From IMG/VR virus record IMGVR_UViG_3300035180_001680: a stretch of DNA of 64,000 nucleotides. The stretch is one strand, 5' to 3'. Below, piece by piece: positions 11,456-57,236 of the stretch (positions within the stretch are counted from its first letter, which is position 1; the number at the start of each line of letters is the position of its first letter). The stretch comes from a virus. Lineage: Duplodnaviria > Caudoviricetes. Both the position numbers and the translations under genes were made by a program. The notes under the pieces are model-generated. The model was not told where the DNA came from and did no database searches. It saw nothing but the letters and a program-made list of their open reading frames with translations.

Positions 11456-12241
11456 TTAACTATTCATTTTTTGTTCATGTTGTGCAATTTTCTTTTTGAT
11501 TATTTCGTGAGCAGGAGTTCCAGGCTTTGTTTTTGATAAAGCCGTTTTGTGAACTTCTAATTCCTTTTTGAGTCGTTCTTGTTCCGCCGCTCTTCTACTG
11601 TCTTGCATTTGTTTAATTACACGTTGTTCTACTTCTTCTCTTGATTCTTTCCGGCGTAGTGTTACTCTATCGTTCATATCAGACCAAGCACGGTATTCTG
11701 AATTTCGTTGTTCGATTAGCATAGATGATTGTAATTTCATAAATGTGTCTTCATTAGCTAATTGCATAGGCATTAACTGTATATATTCTTCGAAATTATT
11801 TGTCCGAATTGCTTCTCTTACATCTGTTGCGGATGTAATTCGGGGTGTTTGTTTTACTTGAATATTCAATCCTGTCTTTTTGTTACTCTCTTCAACAATT
11901 TCTCTATATCGCTTAATTCTGTCTTCACCAGCATAAATTGCACGAATTTGTTTTCCTTCGTTTTTTAAATGAAACAACATTCCATTTAAGTTAGCGTTCA
12001 TTACTTCGATTACAATTGCAGAAGGAAATACTTCATGTATTAACGATTTTTGTTGTTTAAACGATAATGGATTGTTAACTTTATCTTCTGAAGAGTTTTT
12101 GCCTTTAACAACTGCGATTATAGGATTCTTCATAGATTCAATTATAGAAGCGTGCCCTTTGTGGAACGGTTGGAATCGTCCCACAAATAAATCATATTCT
12201 TGTCCTTCTTCAATGAGATACTGTTTAAACGTCTTTGTCAT
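11456..12241 (-). CDS. Cytidylyltransferase/NMNAT-like HIGH nucleotidyltransferase
   Basis: FVGRFQPFHKGH; N-terminus MTKTFKQYLIEE. Confidence 0.8.
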   Translation of the reverse strand: MTKTFKQYLIEEGQEYDLFVGRFQPFHKGHASIIESMKNPIIAVVKGKNSSEDKVNNPLSFKQQKSLIHEVFPSAIVIEVMNANLNGMLFHLKNEGKQIRAIYAGEDRIKRYREIVEESNKKTGLNIQVKQTPRITSATDVREAIRTNNFEEYIQLMPMQLANEDTFMKLQSSMLIEQRNSEYRAWSDMNDRVTLRRKESREEVEQRVIKQMQDSRRAAEQERLKKELEVHKTALSKTKPGTPAHEIIKKKIAQHEQKMNS

Positions 12242-13359
12242 TTCACTATTCCTTGTTCACGAAGCACTGAAACTATTCTATTAATAGTTTCTTTTCGCTC
12301 TTGTGTTAACCCTTGTTTTATATTTATTCTTTTCTTTTCTTTTTGTAAAAGATTGGCAAGAGTGATGTATAATTCTTCAGCCCACCAATGATAATTATTA
12401 ATTAATGGACCCATAAACAACGGAAGAAGTGAATACGTTATGTTAGAAAAACGTTGCTCTTTTTGAACTAACATAAATTGGTTAAGGTTTTTAAGTTCTT
12501 CACTGTGTATCATACACATTAACAATGTTAATCTTGATATAAAGTAAATGAAAGTGTCATCTGTGGTTTCGTCTAGTGAGAATGTGGTATGTTTTATATA
12601 TAGATCCACGTCCTCTTCTAAATGTTGAAATATAATATCCGTTAACAGTTTCTTAAAGTCACTCATTTCATTATATCGTTCTTCTTGTTTATCTGAAGTA
12701 AACAGTGGGTCCACAAGTTTTGCAGAACATTTATTGTTTTCAAAGTAAAATACAAGCCCCTCATATCCCCCTTCGTGTAACCAACTTAAGTGTTCTGGTG
12801 TTTTGAATATAGACATAATATATTCAATAAACTCTTTTCCGCCATATTTGTGTTTTCGTTCTTCTGCTGACGTTATAACAAATGATTTAATTTGTTTTTT
12901 CTGGTTTTCTGATAATTTTCCACTGAACAACACAGGAGGTTCAGAAATGTCTAATAGAGATGCAATACGTTTATTTTCAGGGTTAGTTGGTAATAGTGTA
13001 GAACCACTCTGATTAATATATGACAATATTAAGTTGTTTTTGGGTTTAGTTGAATATTGGACTTTAGTTTTTAGTTTTTCGTTAAACAATTCCAAATATA
13101 TTTCAGAATTATCTGGAATTTTGTTGGATAAAAGAGGCTCAATATGATGAATGCAATCTTCATAAATGTCCATCGTTGAACGTTTTATGTTATTAATTTC
13201 CCCACGACCTTCTCTTCCGTGGTAAGAAAATATTCCATCATTCTTCTTAATTACAAATGCACACTGGTCAATCTTCACGTTGATAACCACAGTATCATTC
13301 AAAAGATTATCCAAATAGGTGTCACCTTTTTTGGTATAAATGTCGTGTAAATGTTCCAC
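12238..13359 (-). CDS. RNA-ligase-like nucleotidyltransferase-fold protein
   Basis: VKIDQ (motif I-like), PVLFSG, YEGLV (IV), AKLV (V); motif I is non-canonical. Confidence 0.45.
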   Translation of the reverse strand: MEHLHDIYTKKGDTYLDNLLNDTVVINVKIDQCAFVIKKNDGIFSYHGREGRGEINNIKRSTMDIYEDCIHHIEPLLSNKIPDNSEIYLELFNEKLKTKVQYSTKPKNNLILSYINQSGSTLLPTNPENKRIASLLDISEPPVLFSGKLSENQKKQIKSFVITSAEERKHKYGGKEFIEYIMSIFKTPEHLSWLHEGGYEGLVFYFENNKCSAKLVDPLFTSDKQEERYNEMSDFKKLLTDIIFQHLEEDVDLYIKHTTFSLDETTDDTFIYFISRLTLLMCMIHSEELKNLNQFMLVQKEQRFSNITYSLLPLFMGPLINNYHWWAEELYITLANLLQKEKKRINIKQGLTQERKETINRIVSVLREQGIVK

Positions 13360-13366
13360 TTTTAAT

Positions 13367-13936
13367 TTATATTTGATATGTTAATTTTGGTAATCCTTGA
13401 TGGGAAAAATCCACGTTTAGTAGGTTACAAGCCCGAGCGTGGTGTTCCAATGTCAAGCCAATCTCATACTGTATATAAAGTAGATGTGATTCAATATCAG
13501 GTATTAATATGGAAGCAGACGGACTTATTAAGTCAGGGTCATCATCAACGATGATGAAATTGTCAACATAATGAACATCCAACCAACGTTTTATTTCTTC
13601 AGTTCTCCCACCATCACCGGCTCTTGGTGTGTGCCAATTTTGGTGTAACTGAATTTTCAAATTGTTGTTTTTGAATGTCAGTTCAATTTGTTCTCGAGAC
13701 GCATAATGAAACCAGTTTGATGAAATAACTCCAACAACATCATTGTTCTCTGTCCACACGTTAAAGAAACTGACGGCAATTGGGTCAAATTTAACAATGT
13801 TGTGTAAATCCTTGTGTCCAAAGGGATGATTTCCAGATTTTCGGGATTCATTTAAAAGTTGAATATTTTCAGGTAGACACCAAGCTCTACGTGGAAGTAG
13901 TGGTCCGTCGATGTCTATAAATATGATTTGTGACAT
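13367..13936 (-). CDS. HAD phosphatase (Swiss-Army-Knife RNA-repair-like)
   Basis: IFIDIDG, ISSNW, RTEEIKRWL, FIIVDD. Confidence 0.85.
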   Translation of the reverse strand: MSQIIFIDIDGPLLPRRAWCLPENIQLLNESRKSGNHPFGHKDLHNIVKFDPIAVSFFNVWTENNDVVGVISSNWFHYASREQIELTFKNNNLKIQLHQNWHTPRAGDGGRTEEIKRWLDVHYVDNFIIVDDDPDLISPSASILIPDIESHLLYIQYEIGLTLEHHARACNLLNVDFSHQGLPKLTYQI

Positions 13937-14224
13937 TTACGATTGAGCTTTCCTAATAGCTTTATCTTCAATCCATGTAACTTCTTTGCTGTTCAATTCT
14001 TTTTTCCAATTGAATTTTTTTGCGTGGTTGTTTTTATAAAAAGCGTCTGTAATGTGGACTTGATAATCTGTGGGACTATCACCAGTACCATAACCATCGG
14101 GGGTAATTGTTACTTCAAGTTCAAAAGTAATCTTATCGTTTTCATTTTCAGTTTCGTGGGTGTAATCAATTTCAACTGGTACAGTTTCTGCTCTGTTATT
14201 TTCAAAAAGTTGTTTTAGTTTCAT
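13937..14224 (-). CDS. Hypothetical late protein, MKLKQLFE N-terminus
   Basis: ATAAATA upstream; shared N-terminal motif. Confidence 0.6.
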   Translation of the reverse strand: MKLKQLFENNRAETVPVEIDYTHETENENDKITFELEVTITPDGYGTGDSPTDYQVHITDAFYKNNHAKKFNWKKELNSKEVTWIEDKAIRKAQS

Positions 14225-14257
14225 GGTAGTTTCCTTTGTATGGATAATATATTTATC

Positions 14258-14506
14258 TTACCACGAATCGTAATCTGTGAGATCAATTTCTTCTCCAGTT
14301 ACTGCCTCTTGAACTTTCACAATTATCCCAAGACTGGTTGGAGTAAACTTGTAAGTTAACCCACCTCCAATCGCCCCATAATATGGAGCTCCTTTCATTG
14401 AAAGTCCAGGAGGTAGGTCTGATTGAGAGTTAAAAGCTTTTTCGTACACTTCATCCTGCCACACGTAAAGTCTTTCTAGTTGTTTTTGATCAAGCGCAAA
14501 CATCAT
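14258..14506 (-). CDS. Hypothetical phage protein
   Basis: YYGAIGGGLTYKFTPTSLG; overlapping stop/start with neighbour. Confidence 0.6.
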   Translation of the reverse strand: MMFALDQKQLERLYVWQDEVYEKAFNSQSDLPPGLSMKGAPYYGAIGGGLTYKFTPTSLGIIVKVQEAVTGEEIDLTDYDSW

Positions 14507-14724
14507 TCTTCATCCTCTTCGAACCAATTTGGGTGTAATTCTTTGAACACTTCTCGAACTAGTGGATTTTCCCAATAATTGCTGTCACTTTCACAGTCCC
14601 AATCCATATCTTCAAGTTCGCTAATTAAATGTCGTAAAAACTGTTTTTTGTCTGTAACAGGATTTTCACCTATTAAAATGTCACAAACCTTATCAAACAC
14701 GATTGTTCCGCCACACCACCCCAT
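14503..14724 (-). CDS. Hypothetical phage protein
   Basis: MGWCGGT...DWDCESDS; operon packing. Confidence 0.6.
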   Translation of the reverse strand: MGWCGGTIVFDKVCDILIGENPVTDKKQFLRHLISELEDMDWDCESDSNYWENPLVREVFKELHPNWFEEDEE

Positions 14725-15210
14725 ATTAATTCTCCTTGTTCACCAATCGCTGTTAAGCAACTGTTTACTGATAAACACAGGAGAATTTAAAGAACATGAA
14801 TTTCTTGGGTCTTCTGTGTCTGTTGATATCACAGCTTGTATATCATCTTCACCAATTTCTGTTCCTCGAGTTTTGTCGGAAGTCGTAACATATCCTGAAA
14901 AATAGAAAAGGTATTTTGGTTGTTTCATCTATACACATCCTGTTGGTTTTGGTGTTCCAGCATATCTTCCAGCTTGTTTCGCTGGACCAAAAGGGAACAA
15001 ATCAAACAAAAATTTCTTCTCTCCCCACTCATCTCCAATTAAGGCTCCGTACAACCCACCCAGTATCTTATCAGATTGATTAAACCATTCTTCTCGTATC
15101 AATTTAACATCCTCTCGTGAATATTACTAACATTTAACATTCCTTACATATAAATTATTTTGTTACAATTCAATAAATATTATACACTATTTAAACATTA
15201 AAGTCAACTT

Positions 15211-15783
15211 ATGAAGAAAACAGTTTTGGACACGACTGTCCACAGTTTATCATTAGCATTAAAGGAACGGGACATCGTTACAGGACTTCATTCTGAACGA
15301 GTGTGTGAACTTGCGAGATTATTAGCACAAGAACTTAAGATTACAAACAAGGATTTTCATGTTCTTAAAATGGGGGCATGTTTTCATGACATTGGAAAAA
15401 TAGGGATACCTGATAGTATTTTATTAAAAACATCTTCATTAACTGAAAAAGAGTGGGAGAAGATGAAAACCCATACAGTTATTGGTCAACAGATTGTCAA
15501 TGCTTTGGGTGTTGAAGGGTGTATTGAAGCAGGAACAATTGTTCGGCATCATCACGAATGGTTTAACGGGGAAGGATACCCCGACCAACTCGTTGGTAAG
15601 GATATCCCGCTAAATTCCCGAATTGTTAGTATAGTTGACGCATATGATGCTTTAGTATCTCATAGAACGTACCATTGTTCATTGACACACGAAGAAGCAA
15701 TTGAAACCTTAAAAACAGAAACTGGAACTAAATTCGATCCTGAAATAATGAAGGTGTTTTTATCAATTACAAAACCGTCTTAA
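15211..15783 (+). CDS. HD-GYP domain phosphodiesterase
   Basis: HSERV, FHDIGKIGIPDSIL, HHEWFNGEGYP, RIVSIVDAYDAL; ATAAATA at about 15173. Confidence 0.92.
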   Translation: MKKTVLDTTVHSLSLALKERDIVTGLHSERVCELARLLAQELKITNKDFHVLKMGACFHDIGKIGIPDSILLKTSSLTEKEWEKMKTHTVIGQQIVNALGVEGCIEAGTIVRHHHEWFNGEGYPDQLVGKDIPLNSRIVSIVDAYDALVSHRTYHCSLTHEEAIETLKTETGTKFDPEIMKVFLSITKPS

Positions 15784-15960
15784 TTACCATCCTCCTGAAG
15801 AACCGCCAACGTCAGTCAAATGACGCACTACTGGAATCCGAATCAAAAGAAGACCAACTACCAGAACTACAAAATTAGTTAGTAGTTGTTGATTTTTACC
15901 TATATCTCAAAATAGTTTCACTGCTGACCTTATAAACGATTAAAGGGTCAACAGATATTT

Positions 15961-16599
15961 TTAATCAGGTTTCCAAATAGGGTCAATTAGAACTAACTGG
16001 GGACCAACAGAAGTTAACCTTGCCATAATGTTTCCTGAATGTAAGTCTAAATCTGCTATAGTACCATACGTGCGTAAGAAATTAACAACTTCTTCAAATT
16101 GAGCATTGCGCTCAATTTTTTTGTTAACAATAGCATCATGATAATAATTAATCAATTGACTCGTTGCAAGACTTTTGGCAAACTGTTCACTCATTCCGAG
16201 TGCCTGAAGTTGGTGAGAAATAGCATCTTTAATTTTAGGAGAATTTAATGGTAATAATTTTTCCATGTCAACAACTCCTGTATTATCATAAACAGAATCT
16301 ATTCTGTTGATGTATATATCAAACTCTTTCCGATACAGACGAATTTTATAAATTCGAGGTAAAAAGGGGTTATTTTGGTGTTTTTGAATAAACCGCAGGA
16401 ATTGAAGATACCCATCTTCTTCTGTGTTAAAACCAAAGACTTTTGTTACCACTCCAGGCTTCTTTATTCTATCAACTACAACAGCCTGAAGGCCAGCTCC
16501 AAGGCGTTTTAATGAATCTGTGTCTGTGTAACCATTTCTAACTTTAACACTATCAGATTTTCGAAGAGCTTCTCCTCCGATAATTTCAAATAACTTCAT
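15961..16599 (-). CDS. Ser/Thr protein kinase, T7 gp0.7-like
   Basis: LGAGLQAVV, VTKV, LPRIYKI, DLHSGNIM, LIDP parallel T7 0.7 (LGNGHFS...DMHSGNIM...ITDP). Confidence 0.8.
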   Translation of the reverse strand: MKLFEIIGGEALRKSDSVKVRNGYTDTDSLKRLGAGLQAVVVDRIKKPGVVTKVFGFNTEEDGYLQFLRFIQKHQNNPFLPRIYKIRLYRKEFDIYINRIDSVYDNTGVVDMEKLLPLNSPKIKDAISHQLQALGMSEQFAKSLATSQLINYYHDAIVNKKIERNAQFEEVVNFLRTYGTIADLDLHSGNIMARLTSVGPQLVLIDPIWKPD

Positions 16600-16625
16600 A
16601 CAATACTCCGATTTTGAGTATTTAT

Positions 16626-16658
16626 CAACCTCTCAACTAAGAAAACCCCAGATGCTTC
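16626..16658 (+). mobile_element. Remnant of the IS left end
   Basis: TTTAT|CAACCTCTCAACTAAGAAAACCCCAGATGCTTC nearly identical to the element start at 52697. Confidence 0.75.
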
Positions 16659-16720
16659 TTAAAATATTATAGTTAGAATCGTTTTGATAGTCAACTACCT
16701 CGTTTCCTTGTTATATATGT

Positions 16721-16805
16721 TGGTCCACCCGGAGGGATTCGAACCCTCATAGTCAAAGACGCGAGATTAAAAGTCTCGTACCGTACCAGTTCGGTGTCGG
16801 ATGGA
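16721..16805 (-). tRNA. tRNA-Lys(UUU), long variable arm
   Basis: CGAGA-CTTTTAA-TCTCG anticodon arm, T-arm, CCA. Confidence 0.85.
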
Positions 16806-16809
16806 AATA

Positions 16810-16883
16810 TGGTACACCGCCACGGTATTGAGCCGTGTTCTACAGGGTAAGAGCCTATTGCATCACCTTAATGCTTGCGGTGC
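16810..16883 (-). tRNA. tRNA-Lys(CUU)
   Basis: ATAGG-CTCTTAC-CCTGT; CCA. Confidence 0.85.
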
Positions 16884-16892
16884 ATTATATTT

Positions 16893-16967
16893 TGGTAGGG
16901 CGCCTGGAATTCGAATCCAGCCTAAAAGATTAAAAGTCTTCTGTGCTTCCGCTGACACTAACACCCC
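16893..16967 (-). tRNA. tRNA-Lys(UUU)
   Basis: GAAGA-CTTTTAA-TCTTT; CCA. Confidence 0.85.
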
Positions 16968-16980
16968 ATTAAATTCCACT

Positions 16981-17069
16981 TGCTCCGGTCCGAGGAATCG
17001 AACCTCGCCTCCTTTCGGAGCCTTCGCATTAACAGTGCGAGACCTTCACCAAGCCAGTCCGACCGGAGC
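16981..17069 (-). tRNA. tRNA-Asn(GUU), long variable arm, no encoded CCA
   Basis: TCGCA-CTGTTAA-TGCGA; V-arm CTCC-GAAA-GGAG. Confidence 0.85.
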
Positions 17070-17080
17070 AAGTGAAACTT

Positions 17081-17154
17081 TGGTAGTCCCTAGAAGAATT
17101 GAACTTCTGTATCTGCCATGTCACGACAGCACTCTACCATTGAGTTAAGGGACT
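17081..17154 (-). tRNA. tRNA-Val(GAC)
   Basis: CTGTC-GTGACAT-GGCAG; CCA. Confidence 0.8.
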
Positions 17155-17160
17155 ATTAAA

Positions 17161-17173
17161 TTTTTAAAGAACA
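17161..17173 (-). promoter_or_regulatory. boxA-like element
   Basis: TGTTCTTTAAAAA between terminator and first tRNA; rrn boxA consensus TGCTCTTTAACA. Confidence 0.65.
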
Positions 17174-17174
17174 T

Positions 17175-17207
17175 AAAAAAAGCCTCGGGAGATTTCTCTG
17201 CCGAGGC
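17175..17207 (-). terminator. Intrinsic terminator of attenuator 1
   Basis: GCCTCGGCAGAG-AAAT-CTCCCGAGGC followed by T7. Confidence 0.9.
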
Positions 17208-17227
17208 CTATTAACTTTTGTTTACTT

Positions 17228-17329
17228 TCAGATGATTAGTTTGATTTCAACAGTCAATGCCTCGGCGTGTGAACGTTTATTATTAACGTTTACATTATTG
17301 ATAAAAATTGGTTTAGTTGAATCGAACAT
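17228..17329 (-). CDS. Leader peptide 1 (Asn/Val/Lys): MFDSTKPIFINNVNVNNKRSHAEALTVEIKLII
   Basis: 33 codons; contains antiterminator GCCGAGGC (17259-17266) complementary to the terminator 5' arm. Confidence 0.85.
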   Translation of the reverse strand: MFDSTKPIFINNVNVNNKRSHAEALTVEIKLII

Positions 17330-17365
17330 TTGTAAATTCTTTAAGTTTGTTAAGTTAGTGTTATA

Positions 17366-17394
17366 AGTATATATGACTTATTTATGAAAGTCAA
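17366..17394 (-). promoter_or_regulatory. tRNA-operon promoter 1 (sigma70 plus embedded late ATAAATA)
   Basis: TTGACT-N17-TATACT with ATAAATA in the spacer; same block at 23326, 36623, 60373. Confidence 0.9.
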
Positions 17395-17592
17395 CAAAAG
17401 TTTACAGATAACTGTTGCAACTTCATAATCTTTAGATTTTTTTCAAATCTTCGTCATCTTTTTCATATCCTTTTTTGAAATCCCTCATACCTCTGTCAAA
17501 TTGTTTTTCAAGCGTACGAAGTCGGCGTGGTTCCTATGTTTTTTTGATAGTTCAGTAAATTCGTCTACTAAATCCGCTTGTGTATCTTCCAC

Positions 17593-17868
17593 TCATTCAG
17601 ACATTAAATGGGTTGCATCTTCACGCAACTGTTTTGTCTTACCTTTTGTGATTTCACTTTCATTCAACTTTTCCATACCACTCTTCGTAATCTTTCCAAC
17701 AATCTTTCCATCTTTCTTTACTTCGACAGGGTATCCCGTCTTTTCAGAATGTTTCTTCATTGTCGAAATCACTTCTGGTGTAAGATTAGCAGCACTCGTG
17801 ATAAATCCATTGGACTTTGAACAATAAAACTTATATAATTCAGTTTCAAATAATTGTTTTAATTTCAT
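17593..17868 (-). CDS. Hypothetical late protein, MKLKQLFETE N-terminus
   Basis: ATAAATA upstream; shared N-terminal motif. Confidence 0.55.
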   Translation of the reverse strand: MKLKQLFETELYKFYCSKSNGFITSAANLTPEVISTMKKHSEKTGYPVEVKKDGKIVGKITKSGMEKLNESEITKGKTKQLREDATHLMSE

Positions 17869-18018
17869 TATTTTTCTCGGTTATTCGAGTTATTTATTAT
17901 TAAGCGTGTTGGTTTCCAATAATCATAAAGTGATTGTATAAAACATGATTTTTACCACGTAAAAACCAAATCACGGTTGCCATTGCTCTCAAAGACGTTG
18001 TTTTAATTACCATTTGAC

Positions 18019-19731: not shown

Positions 19732-20078
19732 TTGATTTTTCCTGGCGTAATAATTATTGTTGCAATGCAGTGTTGGTTCCTTGGAAGGTCTTTTTCACAC
19801 TGAATCACATTCTTGTGAAGCTGCCGCGCCATGGTGTTCAGTGTTGTATTATACACATATAAGTTATATCCAAGCCATCCCAAAGAAAAACTTATCACAC
19901 CAGTCTAGGTATAAAATTCCATAATTACGTAATGGTCACCGACAGGCATCTTTGTCTTTGTACTAACTCACGTTTTAGTTCCTTAGTTCATGATTTATCC
20001 TAAAATTGCTATATCGACATCATACTTACACTAATGTTAAAAGACAACATAAATATTAAATAACGACTGGGACATGAA

Positions 20079-20510
20079 ATGAGATTGAATGAGATTTTTA
20101 ATTCGAGTGTAGAAATACATGTTGACGTTAAAACATATGAGGAATGTAAAATGTTTTTCGTGGTTGGGGAGATGGAATATGTTTTCCATGCTTATGAGAC
20201 ACAAACGAATGATGACAAAGGAAATCAGGTTTGGAACGTTGCATTCCGTGCTCAAAAAGGAAATCAAACGTCACACGGAATAACAGGTTCCGGAAATGCT
20301 TCTCAAGTTATGGCTGCTGTTATCCAGTGTATTAAAAAATGGATTGAATTATATCCAAAAGTTGTTACGTTCTTCTTTTCTGCAAAATTAGATGAACCAT
20401 CCAGAGTAAAATTATACAACCGAATGGCTCAATCTATTAAAGTTCCAGGGTGGAAAATGTATAAGGAAACGTTCAAAACCAAAGAACTATATTATTTTAC
20501 AAAAGGTTAA
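20079..20510 (+). CDS. Hypothetical late protein, MRLNEIFN N-terminus
   Basis: ATAAATA at about 20049; shared N-terminal motif. Confidence 0.65.
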   Translation: MRLNEIFNSSVEIHVDVKTYEECKMFFVVGEMEYVFHAYETQTNDDKGNQVWNVAFRAQKGNQTSHGITGSGNASQVMAAVIQCIKKWIELYPKVVTFFFSAKLDEPSRVKLYNRMAQSIKVPGWKMYKETFKTKELYYFTKG

Positions 20511-25147: not shown

Positions 25148-25684
25148 ATGAGAGGGATACTATTGTCCATTTTTTTGTTAGTTACATCTACAGTTTACGC
25201 GGGTTCTGAATACCAAGAAAAACAGAACAATTTACAACAACTTATTGATACAAATAAAAGCTCTATCGATAAACAACGATACTGTTTAGCTGAAACAATA
25301 TATTTTGAAGCTGCAGATTATAAAAAATCACAACTTGCTGTTGCAAACGTAGTAATAAATCGTGTAATAGATTCAGACTATCCTAAAACAGTGTGTGCAG
25401 TTACACATCAAACAACCAAAACTCGGTCCGGAAAGCACGTGTGTCAATTCTCATATCAATGTGATGGGGATAAAGACATAAACACGGAATCTGATAAATG
25501 GGCCAGTGCTCAAGAAATTGCTGCAAGTATTATGCACGCATTTGTAATTCAACAACGTACAGATATAACACACGGTGCTACACATTTTCACGATGAACGA
25601 GTTACACCTTCTTGGGCAGTATCTCCAAGTTTTGTTGAAGTGTTAAAAACAAAGCACCTTACATTTTACAAAGAACGCGATTAA
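25148..25684 (+). CDS. SleB-like cell wall hydrolase (Hydrolase_2)
   Basis: CLAETIYFEA, AVANVVINRV, CQFSY, GATHFH; TATAAATA upstream. Confidence 0.9.
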   Translation: MRGILLSIFLLVTSTVYAGSEYQEKQNNLQQLIDTNKSSIDKQRYCLAETIYFEAADYKKSQLAVANVVINRVIDSDYPKTVCAVTHQTTKTRSGKHVCQFSYQCDGDKDINTESDKWASAQEIAASIMHAFVIQQRTDITHGATHFHDERVTPSWAVSPSFVEVLKTKHLTFYKERD

Positions 25685-25769
25685 CTACTTGTTTTTAAAG
25701 TCAGTTTCGTAATACCCTTCACCTTTTAGATGAAAGGGTATTCCTTGTGAGATAATTCTCAAAAACGTT
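25652..25769 (+). repeat. 118-bp direct repeat, copy 1
   Basis: Identical to 27056-27173. Confidence 0.9.
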
Positions 25770-26171: not shown

Positions 26172-26417
26172 ATGAATGTGTACACTGATAAAACGCTAAC
26201 AGACCTTGCTGAAGTAACGGCGCCTGGTCAGGACACATTAAAGCAATTGGTGAAAGAATTCTTCTACTACCTTGATATGACAGAAGAAAGTGATTCGGGT
26301 AGAGTATTTCACCCAACCATCATAACGTCGTGCAGAGTGCACGACCAACAAGCTATCAATAAAATTCTTAAACAGTTGAAGGCACACGTAACAGACGATC
26401 GGGATTCAACTGAATGA
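26172..26417 (+). CDS. Hypothetical phage protein in inserted segment
   Basis: YLDMTEESDSGRVFHPTIITSCR; higher-GC block. Confidence 0.55.
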   Translation: MNVYTDKTLTDLAEVTAPGQDTLKQLVKEFFYYLDMTEESDSGRVFHPTIITSCRVHDQQAINKILKQLKAHVTDDRDSTE

Positions 26418-26704
26418 CAAAAGACATACGATATAACACGATCTCCGGATTGTTCGAAGATGACACAAGCCTCGTCCCCGTTAGCGTTCACTTTTCTGAA
26501 TGGTGGAACGGCGAAGGATTGACATTCAACTTTGATGATCAAAAACATATTTCACTGCACTCAGATGAAATCCGGGCACTGTGCGTGATTGCGATTGCAA
26601 CGGGTATGGTCAGCGTTGACGATTGCATAGAAGCTGCATACCAGATGAAGAAAGAATCATCTGACCGAGACGAAGCAATTCGCAAGACCAGAGAAGGTGG
26701 TTGA
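26414..26704 (+). CDS. Hypothetical phage protein in inserted segment
   Basis: Overlapping ATGA with upstream ORF. Confidence 0.55.
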   Translation: MTKDIRYNTISGLFEDDTSLVPVSVHFSEWWNGEGLTFNFDDQKHISLHSDEIRALCVIAIATGMVSVDDCIEAAYQMKKESSDRDEAIRKTREGG

Positions 26705-26736
26705 CTTTCGCCATCAGTTGGTGGTATAATGACCAC

Positions 26737-26945
26737 ATGAAATTAACAGAATTGAATGAATACTTTGAACCATCTCTGTATGAGATGTCAAACTTTTCCT
26801 CCCGCAATACAGGCCTCCCACCAGGAACTGTTCTCTGAGAACCGAGCCTACAGTATTACCTCACTCAAAATACAGAATCAAAATTAGTCACCCACAGAAT
26901 GGTACCGCGGTATTTGCTATTTGGGGAAACCACTTGGACAATTGA
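26737..26945 (+). pseudogene. Decayed MKLTELNE-type gene
   Basis: MKLTELNEYFEPSLYEMSNFSSRNTGLPP then frame break; TTGACT...TATAAT at 26701-26730. Confidence 0.5.
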
Positions 26946-27055
26946 TTGTGCTGATATTTTAGACAAACCAGCCCACTAAAAACAACGGTAGTAATGGTGT
27001 ATGATCCGACAGAGTATACGGAGTTGATCACGTTCATCTCCGAAGCCATTGAACC

Positions 27056-27173
27056 AAGCACCTTACATTTTACAAAGAACGCGATTAACTACTTGTTTTT
27101 AAAGTCAGTTTCGTAATACCCTTCACCTTTTAGATGAAAGGGTATTCCTTGTGAGATAATTCTCAAAAACGTT
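27056..27173 (+). repeat. 118-bp direct repeat, copy 2
   Basis: Identical to 25652-25769. Confidence 0.9.
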
Positions 27174-36986: not shown

Positions 36987-37538
36987 TTACAGGTTGTACT
37001 TCTTTATAAATGTAGGATAAGTCATACTGTCCAAATCTTTTTTAACTTGAGCTTCTAATTTTTTATCTGTTCCAACAAGATCTCTCAGTCTCTTAGTATC
37101 ATACACACATTCTTCAGGAAAATTCTTCATGGCTCCTCTTGCAGTCTCGTCATTAATACTAGCTCCTAATTTCCATCCACTAACCCGTTTTGGATTTTCT
37201 TTTAGGGCACGTTCGAACATTCCTGATGGTAAACGTGATGGCCCTGTGATTGAATCTGGATCTTTTGAACGAAGATCGTTTCGTTCCATAAAAGCTTCAT
37301 ATTCGTTATCAAAAATTTCCATCTCTTTAAATTTGCAATTATCAATTCCACCTGCTGCGTTCACATATTTTGCTTCTGTTCTATCGGCAGCGTTCCGATT
37401 AGCACCAGCTAAGAACGTCTGTCTTAAATTACCCTTTCCATACCCATAATAAGTGCTGTGGTTGTTAGAGTTGGTAACTTTATACACAACCCAGTCTGTA
37501 GTATTTTCTGTTAGAGGAATTAGGTCTTTTAATTTCAT
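36987..37538 (-). CDS. Late protein, MKLKDLIPLTE N-terminus, GIY-YIG-like start
   Basis: WVVYKVTN...YYGYG; ATAAATA upstream. Confidence 0.55.
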   Translation of the reverse strand: MKLKDLIPLTENTTDWVVYKVTNSNNHSTYYGYGKGNLRQTFLAGANRNAADRTEAKYVNAAGGIDNCKFKEMEIFDNEYEAFMERNDLRSKDPDSITGPSRLPSGMFERALKENPKRVSGWKLGASINDETARGAMKNFPEECVYDTKRLRDLVGTDKKLEAQVKKDLDSMTYPTFIKKYNL

Positions 37539-37810
37539 TTGATTGTTCCTTTTAAGTTTGTTGTTTATACCTTTATATTTATTATTAAGTTTTAAGAAAA
37601 ATACATCATGCCAGCAATAAACACAACCCCACTCCAAACATTTGGTACTATTCCAACATATACATCCGTATCCAGATATTATGTTAATGGGACACCATCG
37701 GTCGTTTTTGCTGTGTACCGTAGGGTCAATTACCACATCTGGATTTAGGGTATTGCATTATGAAAATCAAGTAACAACCGACGCCGGTCCAAGGTCTTCA
37801 TTCTTGGTGT

Positions 37811-43877: not shown

Positions 43878-44114
43878 TTAATGAATAGAATCGTAGTATC
43901 GTTTCTTTATGTTAGAAATACATTTCTTTTGAGCAGATGTAGATAGGTGTTCGAATTTAGGATCATTGTCAAGCATTACGTCTATCGCTTCGTCGAAGGA
44001 CATTTTATCATTCTCGATCATGTCCGCTAATGTCTCGACCCATAACTTATAGTCTGCTTCTGATACATTTGAGTATTCATCTTTGGTGGTTTCGAGGAGT
44101 TGGTTTAATTTCAT
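43878..44114 (-). CDS. Hypothetical late protein, MKLNQLLE N-terminus
   Basis: TATAAATA upstream. Confidence 0.6.
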   Translation of the reverse strand: MKLNQLLETTKDEYSNVSEADYKLWVETLADMIENDKMSFDEAIDVMLDNDPKFEHLSTSAQKKCISNIKKRYYDSIH

Positions 44115-44200
44115 TTTGTTTCCAGTATAGAGAGTGAACGTATTTATACTAAAGTCAAACAGTTGTTTAAAATAAATCCACTCTCCAACATAACGCTTGG

Positions 44201-51330: not shown

Positions 51331-51811
51331 AGACCCTATTAAAAGCAATACAACTGTTAGTGTATTGGTGGTCGTTCGTAACTTCTTCACCGACCCAATC
51401 TGGTAAAATTAAACTATCAATTTCTAGCTGAGATTTGTTTTGATTAAACTCGATTTCGGCTACGATAAGCCCCTCGTGTTTTCCCCCAAACACATCAACT
51501 TCCCACAAGTGATAATTATTTTTAACAATGTAACGAACCTTCTCTATGGAATTATGTTCAAAAGCTGAAAATAACTCTTTAGCTAACGTTGGTTCGATAT
51601 CAAATTCGAATTCCTCCCGCCTCAACATATCACCAGTGTCTTTTTTAATAGTCATTCTGTACCAAGACAGGACCTGGGGAACAGATTCAGTCTTTATCCG
51701 AACTCGAGTATTCGGAGCAATGTATGCTTGTTTAATATGAAAAGTTCGAACGATATTGTTCCTCCAATTATCGTTTTTTACTAGAAACTTTCGTTCGATT
51801 TCAAGATTCAT
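51329..51811 (-). CDS. CYTH domain protein (triphosphate tunnel metalloenzyme)
   Basis: EIERKFLV, EKVRY, WEVDVF, VAEIE, PDWVGEEVT. Confidence 0.92.
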   Translation of the reverse strand: MNLEIERKFLVKNDNWRNNIVRTFHIKQAYIAPNTRVRIKTESVPQVLSWYRMTIKKDTGDMLRREEFEFDIEPTLAKELFSAFEHNSIEKVRYIVKNNYHLWEVDVFGGKHEGLIVAEIEFNQNKSQLEIDSLILPDWVGEEVTNDHQYTNSCIAFNRV

Positions 51812-52097
51812 TTTTGTTTCTTTGTTTATAATCAATCGTTAACACTACTTCATCTTTTCCAGTCCAAACTTCACAAAGTCCGTGTTCACCCCATTCACTC
51901 AACACACTCATTTCACCATCACGCCAAAGCTCAGGACTAGCACAAACATAACCTCTTGGAGTAGTAACGCTAGTTTTGTTTGTCCAGGGGTGACCATAAT
52001 CTGTCCATCGCCAGAAACAGTTACAACAACAGCGATCGTGCCACTCTTCTTTCATACATTTGTGATTAATCATCATTAGTTCATCATTCATTAAATG
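51801..52097 (-). CDS. Cys-rich hypothetical protein
   Basis: CCCNC...CASP...HGLCEVW; start uncertain. Confidence 0.45.
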   Translation of the reverse strand, partial: HLMNDELMMINHKCMKEEWHDRCCCNCFWRWTDYGHPWTNKTSVTTPRGYVCASPELWRDGEMSVLSEWGEHGLCEVWTGKDEVVLTIDYKQRNKNES

Positions 52098-52453
52098 AAA
52101 TTTGTCGTCAGGACAAATTGCTTCAACGGGAACAACCTCGACGTTTGTATACCACTGGGGGTGTTGTTGAATAATACCTAACTTTGTCGTTAGCGAGTTT
52201 GGAGTTTGTGTAAAGGTGAGCATCTTGGCGGTTCTCTGATGAACCCTTACCAATAGACTCATAACAAATCTTATTTGAGGAAGTGTGCGTATATTGAACG
52301 GCGTAACGAATCATCAGATTATCTCTGTAATTTTGAACATAACTGAATTTTACACTTAAATTACTGTGATGTCAACAGATAACAAAAAACGGACCGAAGC
52401 CCGTTTAAAGTCAACCCACCACTTAATGTTTATCTCCATTAAGAAAGAATTTT

Positions 52454-52530
52454 TGGAGCGGGAAAAGAGACTTGAACTCTCGACCTCAACTTTGGCAAAG
52501 TTGCGCTCTAACCAACTGAGCTACTCCCGC
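52454..52530 (-). tRNA. tRNA-Gly(GCC)
   Basis: CAACT-TTGCCAA-AGTTG; CCA; TATAAATA just upstream. Confidence 0.92.
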
Positions 52531-52696
52531 ATGTTAGTGTATTTATAAACCCACTCAAACAATCTAACAATCAACACCAAGGGTAATAGAATCGTTCGAA
52601 TCGTTTGTCCCCAAATCCAATATAACCAAGGCGGCCAGTTATACATTGAAACTGTTATATTACTTTGTACGAAATATCAAAAATATTGCTTTTTAT

Positions 52697-54033
52697 CAAT
52701 CTCTCAACTAAGAAAACCCCAGATGCTTCAACATCGGGGATGAATTAGTTGATCTCTCTTCTAACTTCCCCCATAAATACTCTTATACAAAGGGAGAACA
52801 CCACTTGCATAAAGCATACACGTTCCGATTAAATCCGACAACAGATCAGGAAACCGCGCTGAAACAGACAGGTGGATCAGTTCGTTGGTTGTGGAACCAA
52901 ATGTTAAAAGCAAATATTGACAAATATGCTGCTGAGGGGAAGTTTAATTTTCAGTTCGATATGAACCGGATGACAACGAAGTTGAGGGCCGAGATTCCGT
53001 GGCTTGAAGAGGTGAATAGCCAGGTTTTGCAGCAGAAAAACAGGGATTTAGATAAATCAATCAAAGCAAAAATCGCAAGGAAAACCAAACAGACTGGATT
53101 TCCTAAATTTAAGAAAAAGACAGAAAACAATGATTCATTTCGAGTTCCTGGTGGTTTTAAGTTATCGAATAAAGGCGTAAAATTGCCTAAAATCGGATGG
53201 ATTTCGTGGAAAATCAATAGAAAACTTCAGGGGAAAGCGAAAAATATTACATTTAAACAAGTAGGTGATAAGTGGAACGCAGTTGTTTTGTGCGAGATTG
53301 CTGATGTAGAACCAAGAACATTGTTTTCTGATGCCGAAGTTATCGGAATTGATGTTGGAATTAAAGATTTTGCTGTGTTGAGCAATGGAAAGAAGATTGC
53401 TAATCCCAAGGACCTTGAGAAGAGTTCTCGGTTGTTAAAGAGAAAACAACAATCACTCTCTAAGAAGGTTAAAGGATCTTCCAATCGAATCAAAGCAAGA
53501 AAATCTGTTGCTAAGTTGCACAGATCTGTAGCAAATAAAAGAAAAGACTTCCAGTGGAAACTAGTTGATTTGATAACCAAAAATCACTCAGTTGTTTGCA
53601 TGGAAGACCTGAATATTAGCGGAATGGTCAAGAACAGAAAGTTGGCTAAATCAATCGAATCTGCTGGATGGAGAATGTTTAAAGAAAAACTTAAACATAA
53701 ACTAGCAGAGACAGGTGGTTTGGTTGTCAATATCCCTAGATTTGCTCCATCTTCTAAAATGTGCTCATCGTGTGGAGCATTAAATCATTCTCTGACTCTA
53801 AAAGATAGAGAGTGGAAATGTGATTGCAATGCTGAACACGATAGAGACATTAACGCTGCGATTAATATTCGGAATATTGGTTTAAATACGCTGGGAACTA
53901 GCGGAATTTACGCCTGTGGAGTTGCCTCTGATGGGGATATAGCATATGATATATCTAGTTATGCAATGATGAAGCAGGAAAATCTGGGCGTTGGCCTGGA
54001 AGCCCCAAATGCTTTAGCATTGGGGTAGTTCAC
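52697..54033 (+). mobile_element. IS200/IS605-family (IS1341-type, tnpB-only) element
   Basis: TAM TTTAT, left-end hairpin CCCCAGATGCT..CATCGGGG, right-end hairpin ending TTCAC; excision restores the host reading frame. Confidence 0.92.
52805..54028 (+). CDS. tnpB: TnpB RNA-guided endonuclease
   Basis: HTH N-terminus; RuvC GIDVG, MEDL, DRDINAA; CSSCG/CDC zinc finger. Confidence 0.95.
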   Translation: MHKAYTFRLNPTTDQETALKQTGGSVRWLWNQMLKANIDKYAAEGKFNFQFDMNRMTTKLRAEIPWLEEVNSQVLQQKNRDLDKSIKAKIARKTKQTGFPKFKKKTENNDSFRVPGGFKLSNKGVKLPKIGWISWKINRKLQGKAKNITFKQVGDKWNAVVLCEIADVEPRTLFSDAEVIGIDVGIKDFAVLSNGKKIANPKDLEKSSRLLKRKQQSLSKKVKGSSNRIKARKSVAKLHRSVANKRKDFQWKLVDLITKNHSVVCMEDLNISGMVKNRKLAKSIESAGWRMFKEKLKHKLAETGGLVVNIPRFAPSSKMCSSCGALNHSLTLKDREWKCDCNAEHDRDINAAINIRNIGLNTLGTSGIYACGVASDGDIAYDISSYAMMKQENLGVGLEAPNALALG

Positions 54034-54456
54034 AACTCGGTAGTCTTCATTGCTTACATTTGCAACCAGATAATCACCTGGAATACTTTCCAAAACACTA
54101 CCATTCCAAATAGAACACCTAAATGTGTCTTCTTTGAATTGTTTGGAAAGATAAATCGCAGTATCTCTTTTTGTTGCTGTTCCAGGGTTTGTTCCATTCG
54201 AATCGTTCATAATTTCATATTTGTCAAAAGAGCTTTGGCCAACAGGATAACCGGTCATCGTATTAAAATCGTCAAACATAACGACACAATCATCAACAAC
54301 TGTTTGAACACCTTCAAGTGAAATTACTGTAGTTCCGTATAGGCGAATATAATCACGACCCCGCATGAACTGTCGAACAATGGGGAGTGCTTCGGTTAAT
54401 TTAAAGCCGTTTGATATTGAAACTTCGATTGGTGAGCCATCTTTCATTTCAAGCAT
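53959..54456 (-). CDS. Hypothetical phage protein with C-terminus disrupted by the IS
   Basis: PGDYLV...EDYRV then IS sequence; native end IKSNIFDISYKVI lies at about 52655-52696. Confidence 0.7.
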   Translation of the reverse strand: MLEMKDGSPIEVSISNGFKLTEALPIVRQFMRGRDYIRLYGTTVISLEGVQTVVDDCVVMFDDFNTMTGYPVGQSSFDKYEIMNDSNGTNPGTATKRDTAIYLSKQFKEDTFRCSIWNGSVLESIPGDYLVANVSNEDYRVVNYPNAKAFGASRPTPRFSCFIIA

Positions 54457-54465
54457 GATTTTCCT

Positions 54466-54798
54466 TTACTGTTTTGTGTTGTCAACAACAATCCTTAATC
54501 TTGACTGTTCTACATTGGAGCGAATTTCCCCACTAAACACTTGCAGCTCATACTGAAACGCATAGAATTGGGTCCAAAATATAGATTGAACCTTATTGAA
54601 CCGTTCTGTTGAATCATGAATACGGTCTAATCGGAGGTTCATGTTGAATATTTTAGCTTCCATTTGTTTCTGTTTATCGGGGTCTTCTTGCCACCTCATA
54701 ACAGCATCATGAATTGCTTCATTACGTTGTTTGTTGAACTCTGTTGGATTATCCTTGAATAGATTCATCCAATAGTCAAAGGTTTTTTCTTCATTCAT
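54466..54798 (-). CDS. DUF3135-like protein
   Basis: FDYWMNLFKDNPTEFNKQR. Confidence 0.55.
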   Translation of the reverse strand: MNEEKTFDYWMNLFKDNPTEFNKQRNEAIHDAVMRWQEDPDKQKQMEAKIFNMNLRLDRIHDSTERFNKVQSIFWTQFYAFQYELQVFSGEIRSNVEQSRLRIVVDNTKQ

Positions 54799-54804
54799 CA
54801 GAAT

Positions 54805-55074
54805 TCAGTGTGAAAGCCACTGGAGTGCCATATCAATATCGTTATCTAATATATCAACAAGACGTTTTTCCCAGTCATAAGTTGAACTAATATTTACCAT
54901 TCCTGGGACGTTTATATCCATTGGTTCAAATAACACAATAGCCATTTCACAATCAGAAACAAAATCAACGAAACCGACGATTTTATCATCAGAATCGTCT
55001 AGGACGAAACATCCAGGATATCCATGCTCAATATTCTCTTGAGTTGCTTTTATTTTGTAATATTGAGTTATCAT
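54805..55074 (-). CDS. Hypothetical protein
   Basis: Operon packing. Confidence 0.5.
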   Translation of the reverse strand: MITQYYKIKATQENIEHGYPGCFVLDDSDDKIVGFVDFVSDCEMAIVLFEPMDINVPGMVNISSTYDWEKRLVDILDNDIDMALQWLSH

Positions 55075-55520
55075 TGTTTTAGTAATCCTTTAATAATATC
55101 AGATGCAACTTTCCCGTCATACATGCCCCCGTGTGTATTTTTTAGATATTGCATAATAAGACCTGTTCCGTTTGATGTTGCAATCCCACCATTTAAAATA
55201 AATTTAGTAATAACAGAAGTCAATTCTTCAACGGAAAGTTGTTTCGGAAGGTAATATTCCAAAATTTCTCGTTCAATTTCTAACGCGTCACGCCAGTCAG
55301 CATCCTGTCGGTCACCAGCGTAAGATATATTTTCGTTGACACCTTTAAGGAATTTTTTAATTGTGTTTATAACTTCTGCATCGGTTGGGTCTCTAGGTGG
55401 TGTAGCATTTTTTCCAACCATCAACGCTTCACTGTAAAGTGTGGTCAACAAACTTACAGCGTCGGATTTAGATTTACGTGCAACAATTTGGTCAGTTTTA
55501 ATTTGTTCAATAAGAGACAT
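55071..55520 (-). CDS. GatB/YqeY domain protein
   Basis: IKTDQIVARK...EILEYYLPKQLSVEEL...GLIMQYLK...DGKVAS. Confidence 0.85.
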   Translation of the reverse strand: MSLIEQIKTDQIVARKSKSDAVSLLTTLYSEALMVGKNATPPRDPTDAEVINTIKKFLKGVNENISYAGDRQDADWRDALEIEREILEYYLPKQLSVEELTSVITKFILNGGIATSNGTGLIMQYLKNTHGGMYDGKVASDIIKGLLKQ

Positions 55521-55994
55521 TTATTTTTACCTTTAAAGTTAAGAATTCTTGCTCGTGGTTTGGTGAACCTTTGTGTTTTGTGAACACATGGAACAAAAGA
55601 TATCCCATTATCTATTAAACATCAGTTGGTGTCAACATTTATTATTAATTTTCACTTTAGCCGTTTCAGCATCAGTGTCGATAATAATAGTTAAATATTC
55701 TCCATATCTAACCCACTGTGATATGATATCATAAAGTTCTTCACTTCGGTCATCACGTATTGATTCAATTTCTTGTGACGAAAGACCTGTTACGTCTACC
55801 ATACTCTGTTTAACAGCGTTAGCAATACTTTCAGATACACCATCGGGGGGTCTTTAAATGTTAAATTAAATTTCATGATTATTCCCCATTAGTTGGAGTC
55901 TTCAAATTGCCCACAGCAGACTGATATATACGTTCATACACCTGCCTGAACACTGTGTGGTCAGATTAACTTAAAAGTGAATAAACGTCAATAA

Positions 55995-56624
55995 CTATTT
56001 AAATAAAGAGGGTAATGCAACTGAACCACGTTGAACAACAACTGCGTCATCATTATTATCAGCATAAAAAAAGTATTGAGAGTTATCAGCATACACAATT
56101 TTCCAATATCCAGACGGAATTGGAAGACCATTAATTGTTTGTTTGTTTTCGTATACTGCTATCGTTACAACATAAACATCTGTTTTTGAAGAATCAAAAA
56201 TACTTCTTACTTTTTCTTCTAGTAACTTCCACTCAACTCTATTTAAAGTTGGAGATTGTGGAGTCATATTTGTCAATAAAAAAGTTTCTTTCATTTCTTC
56301 TAAAGAAGATGCATCATCAGCAGGTGCCATATGACCTTTGTCATAATGTGTTTTTAAATATTGGCGGTTGTTAGGAACAAAACCAACCCTATCATCAGAA
56401 TGAAAATTGTTTGTTCGTTTTACTGACCCTACTGGGGAATTGTGTTTCAATAATTCTGATACAGCAATTACCTTGTGGTTGATAGTGTCATAATCCGATA
56501 CGTAAAAACTATTACAAAGTTCAGTAGTATTAGGAATGTTAAACGGTTTATGATCTGGGTATAGTTGAGGACAGTCTGCAAACGCGAAAGAAGAAACTAA
56601 AAGAAGCCCAAATAGAAATTTCAT
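55995..56624 (-). CDS. Secreted DNA/RNA non-specific endonuclease
   Basis: Signal peptide; YDKGHMAPA, TFLLTNMTPQ, LNRVEWKLLE; TATAAATA upstream. Confidence 0.9.
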   Translation of the reverse strand: MKFLFGLLLVSSFAFADCPQLYPDHKPFNIPNTTELCNSFYVSDYDTINHKVIAVSELLKHNSPVGSVKRTNNFHSDDRVGFVPNNRQYLKTHYDKGHMAPADDASSLEEMKETFLLTNMTPQSPTLNRVEWKLLEEKVRSIFDSSKTDVYVVTIAVYENKQTINGLPIPSGYWKIVYADNSQYFFYADNNDDAVVVQRGSVALPSLFK

Positions 56625-56649
56625 ACAATAACTCCAAAAAGGGTATTTA

Positions 56650-56982
56650 TATTTTTGGCTTTATTGAGTTGGTCCTGTGTAATTAATTTGCCCAATATTT
56701 GTTTTTTGTGTTGTTGAACTGATTTAACTAGTCTATGAACCCCATCTAATACTACCAATTTACCTTTCGATTTGATAACAATTATAGGATGTGAAGTATC
56801 TGCCTTGATTGTTCGCTGTTTTTCTGTTTTAGTGTATGGGGGAATCCAAATTAAATCAGATACTTCAAACTCTTGGGGCTTGACGTTTTTAATTATTCAT
56901 AATAATTTATTAACGCTATAATCATTTCCTTCAGAGCGAATAATGCTCGAATCTTCTTCTTGATATTGTTCCCATAATAACA
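56650..56982 (-). pseudogene. Interrupted ParB-like fragment
   Basis: HPIIVI...VLDGVHRLVK with an in-frame stop upstream. Confidence 0.45.
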
Positions 56983-56984
56983 TA

Positions 56985-57236
56985 TTATTCCATTGAACTT
57001 ATTACACGTTGAAGTGCAGAACGGATTTTATTCATATTAGATAGAACAGCAGAGGCGTGTTTCTTCTTATCTACGGGGTTTTTCATCTTGTTAACAATTC
57101 CCAAACCACGTTTTGCAGCATCCATCATTGATGCAATTTGGTCCAAAGAAACGTTATCAGGAATCTCGACTGCTTCAATAAGCATTTCCGATTGACCAAT
57201 TCCAGCGAGTTCCATGAGTCTTGATGTTGTTGTCAT
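56985..57236 (-). CDS. Hypothetical late protein (RLMELAGI motif)
   Basis: ATAAATA about 30 nt upstream. Confidence 0.6.
   Translation of the reverse strand: MTTTSRLMELAGIGQSEMLIEAVEIPDNVSLDQIASMMDAAKRGLGIVNKMKNPVDKKKHASAVLSNMNKIRSALQRVISSME

Follow-up and report, generated by a model that had tools for sequence, protein, structure and literature searches.

The DNA analysed here (the window) is a stretch of 64,000 nt from an uncultured phage of the Caudoviricetes, corresponding to the reverse complement of positions 33549-97548 in the 178,796-bp virus record IMGVR_UViG_3300035180_001680 (36.5% GC). It raises the question of why genes otherwise unlike one another should begin with nearly the same eight residues, MKLxxL(F/L/M)E, behind the same promoter-like heptamer, ATAAATA. 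The reading we favour, as fairly probable, is that these N-termini (hereafter tags) are capsid-targeting propeptides of the type described in phage T4, cut by the head protease; the dozen or so unrelated, late-expressed proteins that bear them are probably carried in the virus particle.

The T4 prohead protease gp21 cuts after L/I-X-E, and virion components thereby lose N-terminal propeptides of 7-65 residues (PMC9026906). For the T4 internal protein IPIII the first 10 residues suffice for targeting, residues 4 and 7 serving targeting and residues 8 and 10 processing, and the T4 literature already suspected the capsid-targeting mechanism to be general (PMC9026906). The present finding extends that suspected generality, the mechanism itself being already known. 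For this phage the proposal is that (T)ATAAATA promoters dependent on gp55 would drive late synthesis of the tagged proteins, each would be docked by its tag into the scaffold core while the prohead assembles, a gp21-family prohead protease would then cut after the tag Glu, and the mature enzyme would stay in the head with the DNA and enter the next host cell alongside it. We infer docking, cleavage, head retention and injection alike for the tagged proteins of this phage.

The resemblance among the N-termini exceeds what the composition of the gene set would produce. The pattern ^M[KR]L..[LIMF], searched among ATG-initiated open reading frames (ORFs) of at least 40 codons in the record, gave 11 matches, 10 of them gene-like. 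Among our own gene calls (n=275) these 10 compare with 1.29 expected and with a maximum of 7 in 20,000 column shuffles, although the pattern was picked post hoc, so that its P value is indicative only. An all-versus-all comparison of N-terminal 10-mers, which needs no pattern, returned 43 pairs scoring at least 18, the majority of them members of this set (tag A), versus 8 pairs for internal 10-mers. The fuller motif [KR]L..[LI][FLMI].{0,1}E occurs six times directly after the initiator Met, as against a single occurrence among some 50,000 internal positions, and [LI]-x-E lies in the first 12 residues of all 10 tagged genes versus 27 of the 265 others (P=6e-10). Past residue 12, no mutual similarity was found among the tagged proteins. 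Because the Leu codons vary among tags (TTA, CTA, CTT), the resemblance lies in the peptide and not in the DNA. The consensus, MKLxxL(F/L/M)E, places Leu3 and Leu6 three apart, a pair kept in orthologs; it is aliphatic rather than aromatic, so that the T4 spacing rule is reproduced in pattern only. PeSL cassettes of T4-type phages combine an early promoter with a stem-loop and repeat at the nucleotide level; a mobile promoter cassette of this type was considered here and rejected, since the upstream DNA and first codons differ and just ATAAATA and the encoded residues are common.

The tagged genes and their promoter-like sites are as follows (window coordinates unless stated; a slash stands behind the tag Glu).

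13937-14224, minus strand: 95-aa protein of unassigned family, tag A (MKLKQLFE/N), opening a four-gene late unit.
14250-14256, minus strand: ATAAATA late-promoter-like site, 32 nt upstream of the start at 14224.
15961-16599, minus strand: predicted 212-aa protein-kinase-like enzyme (T7 gp0.7-type PHROG), tag MKLFEIIGGE.
16619-16625, minus strand: ATAAATA, 26 nt upstream of the kinase start.
17593-17868, minus strand: 91-aa protein of unassigned family, tag A (MKLKQLFE/T).
17891-17897, minus strand: ATAAATA, 29 nt upstream of the start at 17868.
20079-20510, plus strand: 143-aa DUF6934-like protein (phrog_16075/6387), tag MRLNEIFNSSVE.
20049-20055, plus strand: ATAAATA, 30 nt upstream of the start at 20079.
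31404-31640, minus strand: 78-aa protein, tag MKLRDLLNE/T.
31662-31668, minus strand: ATAAATA, 28 nt upstream of the start at 31640.
32419-32787, minus strand: predicted 122-aa nuclease with NUMOD4 and HNH_3 domains, tag MKLEELME and a 3-residue linker.
33899-33905 and 33918-33924, minus strand: two ATAAATA sites upstream of the gene at 32822-33868; the pair could also drive the HNH gene, 34 nt downstream of that gene.
36987-37538, minus strand: 183-aa protein with a weak GIY-YIG/SegE-like signal, tag MKLKDLIPLTE/N.
37576-37582, minus strand: ATAAATA, 44 nt upstream of the start at 37538.
43878-44114, minus strand: 78-aa protein, tag A (MKLNQLLE/T).
44141-44148, minus strand: TATAAATA, a full T4-type late-promoter octamer, 33 nt upstream of the start at 44114.
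11456-12241, minus strand: predicted 261-aa cytidylyltransferase-like nucleotidyltransferase, tag B (MTKTFKQYLIE/E; MTKTFKQYLIEE), ending the unit begun at 14224.
26737-26838, plus strand: 33-codon ORF beginning MKLTELNE, a weak member, within a plus-strand insert.
56985-57236, minus strand: 83-aa protein with a third N-terminal type, MTTTSRLMELAGIGQSE, not MKL; ATAAATA at 57261-57267.
Genome 26258, beyond the window (strand not stated): gene beginning MKLADLFE.
Genome 31683, beyond the window (strand not stated): MKLNEITE on an AAA_33 P-loop kinase.

The starts of 36987-37538 and 43878-44114 are internal ATGs of longer ORFs, each with its own ribosome-binding site and promoter-like site. Every N-terminus quoted in a preliminary description of this locus was found in its place, and the genome-wide motif scan which that description had suggested gave the 10 tag-A genes, eight of them inside the window and two beyond it, at genome 26258 and 31683. 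The single shared N-terminus it proposed holds for the MKL set, but the cytidylyltransferase carries another class of tag and two classes had been merged. What it called a decayed copy at 26737 does begin MKLTELNE, but is merely the 33-codon plus-strand ORF, which may be a remnant or a chance match. Its observation that ATAAATA precedes most tagged genes stands for 8 of the 10, at 26-44 nt from the start, whereas the HNH and cytidylyltransferase genes have no site of their own, each lying downstream of a gene that has one.

ATAAATA, often as TATAAATA, is found 20-50 nt upstream of 39 genes, among them that for the scaffold and many for head and tail. Tagged genes are strongly enriched for it: at -50 to -20 it precedes 8 of 10 tagged genes versus 31 of 265 others (Fisher, 3e-6), and within the early/plastic region alone 8 of 10 versus 12 of 162. 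Late synthesis of the tagged proteins is judged from this association with a promoter-like sequence and from a gene for a late sigma factor of the gp55 type (phrog_234, E=1e-26). As a separate observation, a DNA/RNA non-specific endonuclease (Pfam, E=2e-32) at 55995-56624 (minus strand) stands behind a full TATAAATA and is untagged; it is probably late and, judging by a signal-peptide-like N-terminus, exported.

The machinery that would read such tags is encoded by the same phage. Among the PHROG matches are a portal of the T4 type, a head maturation protease of the gp21 type and a major head protein, and the scaffold gene was assigned from its place between the protease and capsid genes together with its N-terminus. 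The protease (phrog_207, E=1e-58) is 34% identical to T4 gp21, retains its His and Ser blocks (GELxHP and GVSSRG) and begins MSTQLLIEE as compared with MNEPQLLIE in T4, QLLIE being common to both. T4 gp23 and the capsid protein of this phage share 29% identity, VLTE/TA of the latter aligning with the gp23 maturation site FLTE/AE; at this position [LIMV]-x-E-[TSNA]-A is found in nearly all of about 70 relatives. From this retention of L-x-E, the cleavage specificity of the prohead protease would appear to be conserved. By capsid protein the closest cultured phages are Xanthomonas phage XacN1 (63%) and Ralstonia phage RsoM2USA (52%), and this capsid clade is encoded on more than 350 IMG/VR stretches. 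Megablast comparison of the phage collection with 19.5 kb of the window gave no match. The 178,796-bp record is about 52% complete by CheckV; a 338-kb contig also carries proteins of this phage, and the DNA sequencing runs that contain it are sediment and microbial-mat metagenomes. A complex prediction with the gp21 alignment and the 95-aa tagged protein as chains scored 0.00, with controls not run, and speaks neither for nor against binding.

The tag also behaves as an addition to otherwise complete proteins. Pfam domains start behind it (NUMOD4 at residue 12, AAA_33 at 13, CTP_transf_like at 18), and kinase residues 1-38 are disordered in an AlphaFold model built on seven homologues. MKLFE(I/L) is nevertheless kept in kinase homologues down to 28% identity, which read MKLFELLE or MKLFELIE. 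For the HNH protein a word-index search gave one close relative only and an exhaustive search gave the rest; in the majority of the 150 best relatives the alignment covers the query only from residue 10 or so onward, and the wider family, by the N-termini inspected, begins straight at an (E/I)W(K/R) motif. The tag is confined to a short HNH subfamily of 50-89% identity (MKIEELME, MKLDTLFE, MKLQDLFE, MRLKDLFE), two members of which are also behind ATAAATA. Even at 50% identity Leu3, Leu6 and Glu8 are constant in the HNH orthologs and positions 4 and 5 variable. The closest large relative keeps both tag and promoter on its HNH ortholog (MKLIDLFE) and on its ortholog of the 78-aa protein at 31404-31640 (MKLADIISE, in relative G001 with ATAAATA at -31). 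Relatives bearing the tag include one of 49% GC with G/C-rich codons. Across four clade genomes the MKLxxLxE DNA pattern gave 26 matches versus 1 control match, and all three large contigs (82-100% complete) with an N-terminal MKLKQLFE encode this protease clade. Similarly, close homologues of the nucleotidyltransferase alone carry LTFKQYL(I/L)E, distant ones starting at GRFQPFHKGH. On these alignments the tag is an add-on under apparent selection at the level of the peptide.

Tag B, the second class, provides the nearest link to T4. Its consensus is (K/L)TFK(Q/E)(Y/F)L-x-E, with F and Y/F three apart as in T4, and it equals T4 IPI at 5-6 of 7 positions with the same spacing from the start Met. 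The N-termini in the T4 record are MKTFKEF for IPI, MKTYQEFIAE for IPII and IPIII, MELITELFDE for Alt and MLKEQLIAEA for the scaffold protein gp22. In six-frame translations of four clade genomes the heptad (L/T)(T/S)FK(E/Q/D)(Y/F)(L/I) occurs 10 times, and nine of these sit 2-3 residues behind the start Met of ORFs longer than 100 codons. Each of the four has one copy of tag B on a conserved 110-aa gene adjoining the capsid gene and one or two on unrelated proteins. XacN1 ORF270, which in the XacN1 publication is listed just in the ORF table and without mention of the virion, is a homologue of this head-module gene. Another T4-like start was seen at the edge of the window: a 131-aa protein cut by the window start (258-287, minus strand; ATAAATA at 310-316) begins MKHYGIEIAE, comparable to T4 MKTYQEFIAE, and weakly matches virion-structural and head-decoration PHROGs.

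Direct virion data come from RsoM2USA, in which matches of the DNA to T-F-K-(E/Q)-(Y/F) are N-terminal in seven cases of seven, 2-3 residues past the start Met (ORFs 89, 132, 254, 255, 385, 404 and 438). Analysis of purified RsoM2USA virions by LC-MS/MS (liquid chromatography with tandem mass spectrometry) detected ten proteins, ORFs 38, 86, 89, 132, 257, 356, 359, 361, 383 and 438 (PMC8504454). Three of these ten (ORFs 89, 132 and 438) bear tag B, a class with 7 members among 486 ORFs (hypergeometric P=2e-4), the published ORF numbers matching the locus tags; this is borne out by the predicted masses of ORFs 38, 89, 132 and 383, those of 257 and 438 disagreeing. ORF438 (L189:480-2162), which was virion-detected, begins with tag B downstream of an ATAAATA and contains EKLDG, a ligase-like motif; its annotated start lies 7 codons upstream of the likely true start, and its published mass of 51.7 kDa is about 10 kDa lower than the predicted 62.4 kDa.

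Tags A and B are also found on homologous proteins. The DUF6934-like protein at 20079-20510 has tag A, and its homologue in relative G004 starts MHITFKQFLIE, a tag B (BLASTP, 6e-9). Exact MKLKQLFE, which matched 70 times in IMG/VR (about 30 of the matches being irrelevant, internal to one large ORF of one sample), starts tandem repeat-protein arrays in many contigs. At loci L125, L128, L135, L138, L160 and L161 these are arrays of 3-6 paralogs, each with MKLKQLFE followed by a conserved ..NYTINDDLSVDVDGDV.. motif. The virion-detected RsoM2USA ORF89, with MKTFKQFLSE, is a homologue of the array proteins (BLASTP, 3e-11), the alignment beginning just past the tags, and RsoM2USA ORF258 has a hybrid tag, MRLKQFLME. 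Because homologous cargo bears either tag in different phages, the two look interchangeable. The scaffold N-terminus of the clade, M(D/N/E)ELLKKLLE, in turn contains LKKLLE, close to the tag-A LKQLFE and ranking 47th of 48,541 windows on the tag profile; likewise in T4, gp22 MLKEQLIAEA resembles the targeting sequence MKTYQEFIAEA. It is a tentative proposal, somewhat short of an even chance in our estimation, that the T4 targeting sequence is an ancient, sequence-readable label, extending from T4 to jumbo phages of the XacN1/RsoM2USA type in two interchangeable forms that mimic the scaffold N-terminus.

Every computational test that was run agreed with a T4-type propeptide, namely the presence of protease, scaffold and sigma factor, the L/I-x-E ending, the add-on position, the conservation and the likeness of tag B to T4. 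Other roles for such a peptide were nevertheless weighed. The tag might be a propeptide, cleaved by the prohead protease or another late factor, that controls the activity or turnover of late enzymes in the cell in the manner of a zymogen, with no loading for injection. An L/I-x-E site closes each tag, nucleases and a kinase among the cargo might need holding back, and head retention of these proteins is deduced rather than observed. This explanation is unlikely, however, since T4 gp21 works inside the prohead (PMC9026906), so that its substrate must be inside anyway, and the RsoM2USA tag-B proteins are present in purified virions. It is similarly improbable that the tag docks to a different late hub, for instance a factor of tail or baseplate assembly, a chaperone or some protein of the host, the T4 likeness being convergent. 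Tag A is short and amphipathic like many docking helices, and detection in RsoM2USA virions cannot separate head from tail; yet tag B agrees with T4 IPI at 5-6 of 7 positions at equal distance from the start Met, the scaffold N-terminus is similar to tag A, and the conserved head-module gene adjoining the capsid gene has tag B in all relatives. That the tag has no sorting role, reflecting an initiation preference of AT-rich late mRNAs (an AAA second codon and an unstructured, A/T-rich start) or a chance convergence of helices, is very unlikely even though Lys is a frequent second residue (33 of 275 genes) and the pattern was chosen after the data were viewed, because residues are kept while codons differ, the tag persists at 49% GC with G/C-rich codons, orthologs of 50% identity hold Leu3, Leu6 and Glu8 constant but not positions 4 and 5, and other late genes are untagged, including a GIY-YIG gene behind ATAAATA.

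Several points weigh against capsid targeting as the function of these tags. The tagged proteins of this uncultured phage are known from sequence alone, the gene starts are our own calls, and the tag-A pattern was defined only after the data had been looked at. The evidence taken directly from virions bears on tag B of a different phage and comes from a survey of ten gel bands that is blind to head versus tail and to removal of the tag; among the ten virion proteins of RsoM2USA identified by LC-MS/MS, none belongs to its tag-A-like ORFs, of which 88, 258 and 405 are examples. Tag A has 8 aliphatic residues as against 10 with aromatics in T4, and by itself shows just a loose likeness to T4 Alt (MELITELFDE) and gp22 (MLKEQLIAE), so that its link with T4 rests on the intermediates and on tag swapping. 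XacN1, with a capsid protein 63% identical, is without the strict tag A; a search of it for tag B gave one internal TFKEF match only, and its published virion enzymes (a chitinase and a lipase) have no such tag. RaK2 is without the tag-B DNA pattern. The absence of the strict patterns from XacN1 (tag A) and RaK2 (tag B) indicates that the tags are patchy across the wider group, and the PA5oct paper makes no mention of propeptides. To our knowledge T4 has not been found to package any nuclease of the homing type, and the carriage of such an enzyme beside the genome needs explaining.

The predicted cargo is varied. Kinases of the T7 gp0.7 type are ordinarily early genes. The product of 15961-16599 is predicted to be a gp0.7-like protein kinase: it matches phrog_15752 (E=1.9e-13), has a protein-kinase-like catalytic Lys and a D-x-H-x-x-N ... 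D motif, with K53, D185, H187, N190 and D206 invariant among homologues, and its model matches APH, PknB and PINK1 kinases with a Foldseek probability of 0.98-1.0 at a low TM-score. Alt is annotated in the T4 record as carried in the particle, and on that model the late synthesis of normally early enzymes is as expected of packaged proteins. The AAA_33 cargo is a polynucleotide-kinase-like P-loop kinase. The minus-strand late unit 11456-14224 comprises the tagged 95-aa gene, a HAD_SAK_2 gene ('Swiss Army Knife RNA repair' domain), a 373-aa gene (12238-13359) that falls in no family and has KxD and EG(L/I)V motifs like those of ligases, and the tagged nucleotidyltransferase, and is possibly an RNA-repair module. 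A BLASTP comparison of the 373-aa protein with the ligase-like RsoM2USA ORF438 was not significant (E=1.5), the common KxD and EG(L/I)V being a lead only. The HNH protein, with NUMOD4 and HNH_3, has 122 aa and no DNA-binding extension, typical relatives having 300-900 aa; a typical NUMOD4/HNH_3 homing endonuclease was rejected for 32419-32787 because the C-terminal DNA-binding module is missing, and the gene is predicted to encode a minimal nuclease. The product of 36987-37538 is probably, on a weak match, a GIY-YIG protein, and the predicted cargo in or beside the window also includes the DUF6934-like protein and four small proteins of unassigned family.

If the tags work as in T4, it becomes possible to tell from sequence which proteins a large group of uncultured giant phages inject, and new short tags are on offer for packaging foreign proteins in phage heads. 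Should they represent an ancient label, the packaged set here would combine a kinase directed at the host with RNA-repair-type enzymes, minimal nucleases and repeat binders in arrays. A kinase made late and packaged would give the next infection a head start, as does Alt in T4, and RNA-repair-type enzymes delivered with the DNA could pre-empt host defences that cut tRNA or mRNA. The near identity of tag B to T4, despite 29% capsid identity, would show the age of the mechanism.

Other features of the window were recorded alongside. The third N-terminal type, M-x(3-4)-RL-x-x-LAGI followed by (I/L)-x-E, begins two unrelated genes, both behind ATAAATA: the one at 56985-57236 (minus strand) and another at L001:9461-10096 (plus strand), whose 211-aa product has alternating Lys-rich and Asp/Glu-rich runs. 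The M-x(3-4)-RL-x-x-LAGI motif was not found in three relatives. A direct repeat of 122 nt (25648-25769 and 27052-27173; 99% identity), which copies the 3' end of a small zinc-ribbon (FmdB-like) gene, brackets a 1.3-kb insert with plus-strand genes at 26172-26838, including the MKLTELNE ORF; this looks like a recent cassette insertion. By eye, a 407-aa ORF at 52805-54028 (plus strand) is TnpB-like, of the IS200/IS605 type.

Among known systems, phiKZ-type giant phages likewise have head-internal proteins that are cut after Glu by a gp21-related protease, and eject their cargo (PMC9026906); cleavage is predicted here. The phiKZ-like proteases (gp175/gp245) act at S/A-X-E sites on long propeptides, unlike the motif described here, and the present phage is not phiKZ-like. 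We know of no short portable N-terminal tag defined in phiKZ-like phages. The internal-protein loci of T-even phages offer a closer parallel, a conserved address peptide being joined there too to fast-changing, unrelated cargo (PMC3012670), and by analogy the cargo under the conserved address peptide presumably serves counter-defence or host take-over. Those loci are clustered at one or two places and encode small inhibitors, whereas the genes described here are scattered, many with their own late promoter, and encode recognisable enzymes. Compared with the T4 capsid-targeting sequence itself, this phage has two tag forms, of which tag A is shorter, aliphatic and nearer to the scaffold N-terminus; its carriers, at least 10 and spread over more than 50 kb, are mostly enzymes rather than small basic proteins, and are known from their genes alone. 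As in T4, however, the tag occupies the extreme N-terminus over some 8-12 residues, has its hydrophobic residues three apart and ends in L/I-x-E, and it is joined to unrelated proteins in plastic regions near tRNA genes of a phage that also encodes the gp21, scaffold and gp23 machinery.

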